Source: a plasmid. From it: a stretch of DNA of 64,000 nt. Below the pieces are notes generated by a model, which was given only the letters and a program-made list of their open reading frames with translations, ran no database searches and was not told where the DNA came from. Each line of letters opens with the position of its first letter. Within the stretch, counting starts at the first letter, position 1. The stretch lies in the sequence record CP033547.1; one strand, 5' to 3'. Position numbers and translations under genes: made by a program. Below, in pieces: positions 2,648 to 5,285 of the stretch.

Positions 2648-3467
2648 GGCACTGTTGCAAAGTTAGCGATGAGGCAGCCTTTTGTCTTATTCAAAGGCCT
2701 TACATTTCAAAAACTCTGCTTACCAGGCGCATTTCGCCCAGGGGATCACCATAATAAAATGCTGAGGCCTGGCCTTTGCGTAGTGCACGCATCACCTCAA
2801 TACCTTTGATGGTGGCGTAAGCCGTCTTCATGGATTTAAATCCCAGCGTGGCGTTGATTATCCGTTTCAGTTTGCCATGATCGCATTCAATCACGTTGTT
2901 CCGGTACTTAATCTGTCGGTGTTCAACGTCAGACGGGCACCGGCCTTCGCGTTTGAGCAGAGCAAGCGCGCGACCATAGGCGGGCGCTTTATCCGTGTTG
3001 ATGAATCGTGGGATCTGCCACTTCTTCACGTTGTTGAGGATTTTACCCAGAAACCGGTATGCAGCTTTGCTGTTACGACGGGAGGAGAGATAAAAATCGA
3101 CAGTGCGGCCCCGGCTGTCGACGGCCCGGTACAGATACGCCCAGCGGCCATTGACCTTCACGTAGGTTTCATCCATGTGCCACGGGCAAAGATCGGAAGG
3201 GTTACGCCAGTACCAGCGCAGCCGTTTTTCCATTTCAGGCGCATAACGCTGAACCCAGCGGTAAATCGTGGAGTGATCGACATTCACTCCGCGTTCAGCC
3301 AGCATCTCCTGCAGCTCACGGTAACTGATGCCGTATTTGCAGTACCAGCGTACGGCCCACAGAATGATGTCACGCTGAAAATGCCGGCCTTTGAATGGGT
3401 TCATGTGCAGCTCCATCAGCAAAAGGGGATGATAAGTTTATCACCACCGACTATTTGCAACAGTGCC
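2648..3467 (-). mobile_element. IS26 (IS6 family), 820 bp, 14-bp IRs GGCACTGTTGCAAA; no flanking 8-bp duplication
   Basis: IR at 2648-2661 and inverted copy at 3454-3467; encodes Tnp26 identical in sequence pattern to IS26. Confidence 0.95.
2700..3404 (-). CDS. tnpA: IS26 transposase Tnp26
   Basis: MNPFKGRHFQRDIILWAVRWYCKYGISYRELQEMLAERGVNVDHSTIYRWVQRYAPEMEKRLRWYWRNPSDLCPWHMDETYVKVNGRWAYLYRAVDSRGRTVDFYLSSRRNSKAAYRFLGKILNNVKKWQIPRFINTDKAPAYGRALALLKREGRCPSDVEHRQIKYRNNVIECDHGKLKRIINATLGFKSMKTAYATIKGIEVMRALRKGQASAFYYGDPLGEMRLVSRVFEM. Confidence 0.95.
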   Translation of the reverse strand: MNPFKGRHFQRDIILWAVRWYCKYGISYRELQEMLAERGVNVDHSTIYRWVQRYAPEMEKRLRWYWRNPSDLCPWHMDETYVKVNGRWAYLYRAVDSRGRTVDFYLSSRRNSKAAYRFLGKILNNVKKWQIPRFINTDKAPAYGRALALLKREGRCPSDVEHRQIKYRNNVIECDHGKLKRIINATLGFKSMKTAYATIKGIEVMRALRKGQASAFYYGDPLGEMRLVSRVFEM

Positions 3468-3592
3468 CATTTTTCTTTATACTATCACTGAGGCAGGTTG
3501 GACATTTGATTGCTAGAGTTATTTGCATTTCTCTATTTTATCAAAATCCAATCGGCTTTTTTCTTCAGCATACTTTTTGAAACACTACCAAA
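3468..3592 (-). mobile_element. Truncated ISAba3 (first ~125 bp, inverted), cut by IS26; provides upstream context/promoter region of blaOXA-58
   Basis: Exact reverse complement of 4483-4607 (left end of the complete ISAba3 downstream). Confidence 0.8.
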
Positions 3593-3609
3593 TTTTAAAG
3601 TTGTATATC

Positions 3610-4452
3610 ATGAAATTATTAAAAATATTGAGTTTAGTTTGCTTAAGCATAAGTATTGGGGCTTGTGCTGAGCATAGTATGAGTCGAGCAAAAACAAGTA
3701 CAATTCCACAAGTGAATAACTCAATCATCGATCAGAATGTTCAAGCGCTTTTTAATGAAATCTCAGCTGATGCTGTGTTTGTCACATATGATGGTCAAAA
3801 TATTAAAAAATATGGCACGCATTTAGACCGAGCAAAAACAGCTTATATTCCTGCATCTACATTTAAAATTGCCAATGCACTAATTGGTTTAGAAAATCAT
3901 AAAGCAACATCTACAGAAATATTTAAGTGGGATGGAAAGCCACGTTTTTTTAAAGCATGGGACAAAGATTTTACTTTGGGCGAAGCCATGCAAGCATCTA
4001 CAGTGCCTGTATATCAAGAATTGGCACGTCGTATTGGTCCAAGCTTAATGCAAAGTGAATTGCAACGTATTGGTTATGGCAATATGCAAATAGGCACGGA
4101 AGTTGATCAATTTTGGTTGAAAGGGCCTTTGACAATTACACCTATACAAGAAGTAAAGTTTGTGTATGATTTAGCCCAAGGGCAATTGCCTTTTAAACCT
4201 GAAGTTCAGCAACAAGTGAAAGAGATGTTGTATGTAGAGCGCAGAGGGGAGAATCGTCTATATGCTAAAAGTGGCTGGGGAATGGCTGTAGACCCGCAAG
4301 TGGGTTGGTATGTGGGTTTTGTTGAAAAGGCAGATGGGCGAAGTGGTGGCATTTGCTTTAAATATGCAAATGAAAGCTGGTGATGATATTGCTCTACGTA
4401 AACAATTGTCTTTAGATGTGCTAGATAAGTTGGGTGTTTTTCATTATTTATA
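3610..4452 (+). pseudogene. blaOXA-58: Class D carbapenemase blaOXA-58 with a 1-bp insertion near 4335 (GGGCGAAGTGG). The ORF ends early at 4383; the native C-terminus ...[34 protein letters not shown] is still readable in the +1 frame
   Basis: [48 protein letters not shown]...[28 protein letters not shown]...[10 protein letters not shown]... matches OXA-58 including STFK, SXV and KSG motifs. Confidence 0.9.
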
Positions 4453-4482
4453 AGAATTAGAAGTTTGAGGTTAATCTATTTT

Positions 4483-5285
4483 TGGTAGTGTTTCAAAAAG
4501 TATGCTGGAAGAAAAAAGCCGATTGGATTTTGATAAAATAGAGAAATGCAAATAACTCTAGCAATCAAATGTCCAACCTGCCTCAGTGATAGTATAAAGA
4601 AAAATGGTATCAAAGTAGATGGGAAACAAAACTATCAGTGCAAAGACTGTAAACGTCAGTTTATTGGTGATCATGCACTGAGCTATCTAGGATGTAAGTC
4701 AGGTATTACTCGTAAAATATTACAGTTGATGGTCAGAGGCAGCGGTATACGAGATATTGCTGAAGTTGAGCGCATCAGTATCGGTAAAGTTTTACGTACT
4801 TTAACTGAATCAACCTATGAAATTCAGCCTCAGCAAAGTCATTATGAATCTCTCGAAGTAGATGAGTTCTGGAATTTTGTTGGAAATAAAAAGAATAAAC
4901 AATGGCTTATTTACGCCTATCATCGAGAAACAGGTGAAATTGTTGCTTATGTTTGGGGTAAACGAGATTTAGCTACAGTCTAACAATTGAAGACAAAGCT
5001 TAAACAATTAGATATTCACTACACCCGAATTGCAAGTGATCATTGGGACAGTTTCATCACTGCTTTTTAAAAAATGGTAAGCAAAGTATTGGTAAATTTT
5101 TTACTGTAGGTATTGAAGGCAATAATTGCAAAATAAGGCATAGAATTAGGCGTAGCTTCAGAAGAAGCTGTAATTTTTCAAAAAGCTTGAAAACCATTTT
5201 AAAGCTTTTGATTTAGCCTTCTTTTCTTTTACATCAATAATGGCTTCATTTAAAGGCAGCATACTTTTTGAAGCACCACCAAAAT
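4483..5285 (+). mobile_element. ISAba3 (IS1 family), ~803 bp, IRs TTTGGTAGTGTTTCAAAAAGTATG / TTTGGTGGTGCTTCAAAAAGTATG
   Basis: Terminal inverted repeats at 4483 and 5262-5285; classic blaOXA-58 flanking element. Confidence 0.85.
4546..4983 (+). CDS. ISAba3 transposase (IS1-family InsA-like N-terminal ORF with zinc-finger CPTC...CKDC)
   Basis: [53 protein letters not shown]...; remainder of Tpase in other frame to 5260. Confidence 0.85.
   Translation: MQITLAIKCPTCLSDSIKKNGIKVDGKQNYQCKDCKRQFIGDHALSYLGCKSGITRKILQLMVRGSGIRDIAEVERISIGKVLRTLTESTYEIQPQQSHYESLEVDEFWNFVGNKKNKQWLIYAYHRETGEIVAYVWGKRDLATV

Follow-up and report, generated by a model that had tools for sequence, protein, structure and literature searches.

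Apparent frameshift in blaOXA-58 of an Acinetobacter IS26-ΔISAba3-like module: a probable long-read consensus error

The 64,000-nucleotide stretch of plasmid record CP033547.1 that was analyzed here (hereafter the window) carries a copy of the carbapenemase gene blaOXA-58 (3610-4453, plus strand) in which one extra G at position 4340 shifts the reading frame beyond codon 243. This base is very probably a long-read consensus error, and the true gene would be an intact blaOXA-58 coding for the 280-amino-acid enzyme. The window was aligned to public plasmids, and structural statements were read from the sequence and the alignments. On this basis, a known carbapenem-resistance module of Acinetobacter plasmids is present here, IS26 (IS15)-ΔISAba3-like-blaOXA-58-ISAba3-araC1-lysE, situated between Re27/pdif-like sites on a large plasmid of the pOXA58 type. 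IS15 is the isoform of IS26.

The extra base in blaOXA-58

An initial annotation, made from the letters of the stretch, had described a +1 insertion that shifts the frame of the gene after the KSG motif and replaces about the last 37 amino acids, and comparison with the reference bears this out. As written, blaOXA-58 is 844 bp long. A search of a plasmid collection matched 132 records, 131 of them over the full length, and all 40 full-length matches listed contain an 843-bp gene that is 99.9% identical to the window with one gap. Once the G is deleted from the context GGGC[G]AAGTGG (position 4340, plus strand), identity to the blaOXA-58 allele is 843/843; the reference coding sequence is WP_002002480.1, which AMRFinderPlus calls OXA-58 at 100%. 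With the extra G the site reads GGGCGAAGTGG, and without it GGGCAAGTGG. The corrected protein matches solved OXA-58 structures and is identical over residues 1-280 to PDB 4OH0 ('Beta-lactamase OXA-58').

The product as written has 257 amino acids, namely the authentic residues 1-243 followed by 14 foreign residues and a stop, and the last 37 amino acids are lost. These can be read in the +1 frame from their second residue onwards (VVAF...HYL, within the open reading frame (ORF) 4310-4453), as had been pointed out for the authentic C-terminus. The class D signatures S-x-x-K, S-x-V, Y-G-N and K-S-G are present as STFK83, STV130, YGN156 and KSG220, all upstream of the shift. Against the NCBIfam profile NF000500 (blaOXA-58_like), the product as written scores 585.8 bits over profile positions 1-245 of 280 and falls below the curated cut-off of 625 because of base 4340 alone; the polished relative reaches 672.2 bits and spans positions 1-280.

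The frameshifted allele itself was sought in three places. Among the matches listed from the plasmid collection none is 100% identical, all being at 99.9%. A 36-mer across the insertion has no match in the GTDB representative genomes, and the exact 257-amino-acid product has none among called genes.

Error profile of the window and origin of the extra G

For 61,854 bases of the window, the polished sister plasmids pOXA58_005069 and pOXA58_100004 served as tiled references, with only 16348-17269 and 32711-33890 uncovered. This comparison revealed 102 one-base insertions and 58 one-base deletions, 160 indels in total, next to 6 substitutions. The indel rate is 2.6 per kb of aligned sequence and the overall consensus error about 0.26%. 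All 58 deletions fall in homopolymers of at least 4 bases, and the insertions fall in homopolymers or recurring motifs apart from about 20 that lie outside both. The most prominent motif is CTGAAG/CTTCAG, of which 16 of 51 sites (31%) appear as CTGGAAG/CTTCCAG. CCWGG is read as CCWWGG (CCAAGG, CCTTGG) at 7 of 42 sites (17%), for example at 5658, 6393, 15284, 16020, 21968 and 52345; this motif is of the Dcm type, with which nanopore basecallers are known to have difficulty. For comparison, 1 of 267 GATC sites carries an indel, and the baseline for any hexamer is 1.6%.

The consequences for the genes are severe. When ORFs of at least 150 amino acids were defined after reference-guided correction, 29 of 38 proved to be interrupted in the window. 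Among them are msr(E) (12291-13765), mph(E) (13821-14708), chrA (414-1763), araC1 with 4 indels, genes of a cyclic-oligonucleotide-based antiphage signalling system (CBASS), three ISNCY transposases and an integrase (43218-46418) with 14 indels. Frameshifts in three quarters of the genes of a plasmid are not credible biology. Repeated sequences within the window tell the same story. The two 125-bp arms of ISAba3 are identical in the polished plasmid, and in the window CTTCAG has become CTTCCAG in one arm only; the three ISNCY copies share a CCAGG error at the same position and are otherwise broken at different places. Together, these features identify the window as an unpolished, indel-ridden consensus. 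Nanopore consensus sequences have been described to err in homopolymers and in methylation-related motifs including CCWGG, with 0.1-0.5% consensus error (Wick et al., 2019; PMC6591954). The homopolymer and motif errors of the window and its rate of about 0.26% match this profile and range, except that its strongest error motif, CTGAAG, is not described there. The error profile thus suggests that the assembly is most likely a long-read-only one from the nanopore platform.

The G at 4340 is one of the 102 single-base insertions of the window. About two errors are expected per 843 bp at the rate given above and one is seen, so a single indel in blaOXA-58 is unremarkable. A residual long-read consensus error would produce a spurious G at this position and leave the underlying gene intact. 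Like the extra base in the 16 dominant CTG[G]AAG errors, the G immediately precedes an AAG. Several observations weigh against an error. Position 4340 lies outside any homopolymer, CTGAAG or CCWGG; the sequences around it are not error-prone, with indels at 2 of 144 GCAAG and 1 of 32 GGCAAG sites; and the insertion is one of a rarer group of some 20 that are neither homopolymeric nor motif-associated (about 1 per 3 kb). The case for an error is therefore stronger for the window as a whole than for this particular site. A real mutation could also hide among the errors.

That such a mutation is what we see here, a real +1 frameshift turning blaOXA-58 into a pseudogene with an inactive product devoid of the C-terminal 37 residues, is nevertheless quite improbable. 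The G is present in the sequence and corresponds to none of the typical error events, resistance genes can decay without selection, and the product as written stays below the OXA-58 cut-off. The last 37 residues make up the C-terminal helix and the final core beta-strand of the class D fold. Yet the insertions outside motifs and homopolymers would by themselves account for about one event per 3 kb, real divergence from the sister plasmids does not exceed 6 substitutions in 62 kb, and the allele is absent from the listed plasmid matches, the GTDB representative genomes and the called proteins. It is barely conceivable that the shifted gene is expressed, be it through +1 recoding by the ribosome or as a functional enzyme with an altered C-terminus. 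All four active-site motifs are upstream of the shift, which would suit such an enzyme, but the C-terminal 37 residues are part of the family profile, and the window product leaves positions 246-280 of that profile unmatched. At GGGCGAAG, no slippery or stimulatory element is apparent, although no search aimed at such elements was made. We know of no precedent for recoding or for an altered C-terminus in class D enzymes, and the window-wide errors make this explanation unnecessary. The initial annotation had left the choice between a sequencing error and a truncated carbapenemase; the former is strongly favoured by the 160 indels against 6 substitutions and the 29 of 38 broken ORFs, and the truncated enzyme is not.

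The distinction matters for the prediction of phenotypes. Were the frameshift real, the plasmid would carry a silent blaOXA-58 in an otherwise high-expression IS26-ΔISAba3 context; tests for gene presence would report a carbapenemase producer where no active enzyme is made, and loss of a single base could repair the gene. If the G is an error, as is very probable, lack of polishing would be the only reason why blaOXA-58, msr(E), mph(E) and most of the other genes look like pseudogenes. Automated resistance prediction would flag blaOXA-58 as partial or disrupted, and carbapenem resistance could be under-called. Frameshift and pseudogene findings from this window should be distrusted. The observation is biologically minor, and its main use is as a caution on resistance-gene calling from unpolished long-read assemblies.

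The prominence of CTGAAG among the error motifs may have its origin in the plasmid itself. The related plasmid encodes an Eco57I/AcuI-type pair of proteins. One, of 541 amino acids, matches M_Eco57I_C at 6e-124, and its gene in that plasmid is located just outside the window; the other, of 997 amino acids, matches Eco57I, N6_Mtase and HSDR_N domains and is of the IIG restriction-methylase type. The first 825 codons of the gene for the latter are found at 61522-64000 (plus strand), broken by 10 indels. AcuI from Acinetobacter calcoaceticus and Eco57I recognize CTGAAG (PMC4736252). Since this site is the top error motif, methylation of CTGAAG by the plasmid's own system is the likely cause of the miscalls.

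IS26, the ISAba3 remnant and a predicted hybrid promoter

Upstream of blaOXA-58, the module starts with IS26 at 2648-3467. The element measures 820 bp, is bounded by exact 14-bp terminal inverted repeats (GGCACTGTTGCAAA and TTTGCAACAGTGCC) that were read directly, and contains a single tnp26 gene (2700-3404, minus strand) in an intact frame, free of indels in the window. The tnp26 frame matches a coding sequence of the collinear plasmid pOXA58_005069 that is annotated as IS26-family transposase (WP_001067858.1). IS26 is followed immediately, at 3468-3592, by the inverted remnant ΔISAba3(-like) on the minus strand. The remnant keeps the left end of ISAba3 and about the first 21 codons of its transposase gene. 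Counted from 3467 or 3468, its sequence matches 4481-4607 of the downstream ISAba3 in reverse complement, and the two form perfect 125-bp inverted repeat arms in the polished relative. The order proposed earlier, an upstream ISAba3 copy cut by IS26, a 125-bp inverted ISAba3 end and then blaOXA-58, is thereby confirmed, as is the lack of a target duplication at IS26: no 8-bp target-site duplication is seen between the flanks GATAAAAA and ATTTTTCT, which are unrelated in the polished relative. Its absence leaves the assignment to IS26 unaffected.

Among the plasmid matches, the sequence to the left of IS26 is common only to pOXA58_005069. Taken together with the missing target duplication, this fits an IS26-mediated deletion or recombination better than a simple insertion, and we infer that such an event took place as IS26 inserted or later. 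The event would have taken away most of the upstream ISAba3-like copy. A search specific for the IS26/ΔISAba3 junction showed that 5 plasmid records share it exactly, namely pOXA58_005069 (NZ_CP026086.2) and the four A. baumannii plasmids CP026749.2, CP076816.1, CP076809.1 and CP156043.1. In these records blaOXA-58 is intact at 843 bp, with a 100% call by AMRFinderPlus, and the ISNCY copies are at other positions. pACICU1 was considered as a further carrier and rejected, since its IS26 is downstream of the gene and ISAba2 is upstream.

The same event would have set a -35 hexamer 16 nucleotides upstream of a -10 hexamer of the remnant. A consensus scan of the polished relative detected TTGCAA-16-TATACT, with the -35 element in the inverted repeat of IS26 and the -10 element in ΔISAba3. 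In the window, this candidate hybrid promoter is at 3455-3483 (plus strand), points at blaOXA-58 and has a spacer of 17 nucleotides because of a spurious C. It is probably active on blaOXA-58, whose expression would be driven by the hybrid promoter together with the remnant's own promoter. Against its activity counts that the prediction is a consensus match, at 9 of 12 positions. Plasmids with an IS6-family-ΔISAba3-like-blaOXA-58 structure were reported to raise the minimal inhibitory concentration (MIC) of imipenem 16-32 fold, compared to 2-4 fold with an intact ISAba3-like element (PMC3882262), and the difference was put down to hybrid promoters (PMC3882262; PMC9330008). Chimeric promoters of this kind have been reviewed, and in the IS1008-, IS1006-, ISOur1- and ISAba825-ΔISAba3-like-blaOXA-58 structures they raise blaOXA-58 expression and carbapenem MICs (PMC9330008). 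There, as in the window, a second insertion sequence cuts the ISAba3-like element and supplies a -35 element to the -10 of the remnant; unlike there, the interrupting element in the window is IS26 and the promoter is predicted only. pOXA58_100004 has the IS1008 version at the same position.

The closest published counterpart is 'structure D' of A. nosocomialis AN119, IS15-ΔISAba3-like-blaOXA-58-ISAba3-araC1-lysE (Fu et al., 2014; PLoS One 9:e84680, PMC3882262). In structure D, the IS6-family element IS15 cuts the ISAba3-like copy 58 bp into the transposase gene, and a 29-bp Re27-like site lies 748 bp beyond the insertion sequence (PMC3882262). The module of the window belongs to this structure by its truncation point, with 21 codons kept, by its Re27-like site and by the ISAba3-araC1-lysE order downstream. 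The site, the identical 29-bp ATTTAACATAATGGTGGTTATGCGAAGTC, is found without mismatch at 1872-1900 (plus strand; 0 expected by chance), 747 bp from the IS26 end, and marks the left boundary of the module. The window differs from structure D by an extra ISNCY-family element at 5337-6812 and by the apparent frameshift in blaOXA-58. The arrangement has thus already been published (PMC3882262), and nothing in the module is new. Window positions 1-5336 are also collinear with pOXA58_005069 from A. pittii WCHAP005069 (Chengdu), with 0 substitutions and 13 indels; the order in that plasmid is chrA, relBE, IS26, ΔISAba3, blaOXA-58, ISAba3, araC and lysE.

Downstream ISAba3, ISNCY copies and flanking modules

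The ISAba3 downstream of blaOXA-58 (4481-5283, plus strand, IS1 family) is full-length. Both of its ends, TGGTAGTGTTTCAAAAAGTATGCTG and TGGTGGTGCTTCAAAAAGTATGCTG, were read directly and carry the terminal inverted repeats, and an IS1-family transposase is encoded between them (NF033558, 2.7e-47, profile positions 1-139 of 199). Correction of the 5 window indels at 4508, 4512, 5068, 5069 and 5185 brings the element to about 794 bp; ISAba3 measures 794 bp. The transposase frame starts at 4546 and is interrupted by an in-frame TAA at 4981-4983, after codon 145 (codon 146). Five polished and diverse plasmids, whose hosts are A. pittii, A. baumannii ACICU, A. junii and A. haemolyticus, have the same stop, at 8577-8579 in one of them, and the IS1 profile continues past it. 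Either a fixed pseudogene or recoding of the stop may lie behind this. The earlier description of this ISAba3 as complete holds for its length and its ends, not necessarily for a functional transposase.

Between ISAba3 and araC1, a break in the alignment with a 14-bp overlap delimits the ISNCY-family insertion sequence at 5337-6812 (minus strand; NF033594 ISNCY transposase, 3.9e-145). It is flanked by the 14-bp direct repeat GGGCTTACAAGGGC at 5323-5336 and 6813-6826, and the site is empty in the closest plasmids. In the window, 3 indels disrupt its transposase. Three copies of this insertion sequence are present in total (5337-6812, 14854-16340 and 21647-23130), and the two copies that pOXA58_005069 has between lysE and brnT are absent from the window.

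The module is closed on the plus strand (6917-8422) by araC1 (6917-7745), lysE (about 7795-8399) and a second Re27/pdif-like site at 8394-8422 with 3 mismatches; both genes are collinear with the AraC and LysE coding sequences of pOXA58_005069. Adjoining this site, a 3-bp GCA insertion relative to pOXA58_100004 is found at 8425-8427, which, unlike the one-base indels, may be a real junction difference. Two more 29-bp sites, at 9248-9276 (minus strand) and 11111-11139, bring the number of Re27/pdif-like sites in the window to four, with 0 expected by chance. They flank the blaOXA-58 module and the small modules next to it (brnTA, toxin-antitoxin genes), an arrangement consistent with a dif-module organization. 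The two regions absent from both closest polished plasmids contain a umuD-like gene (16348-17269; ORF 16855-17436) and an IS4-family transposase gene (32711-33890; ORF 32779-33708, NF033591, 1e-84).

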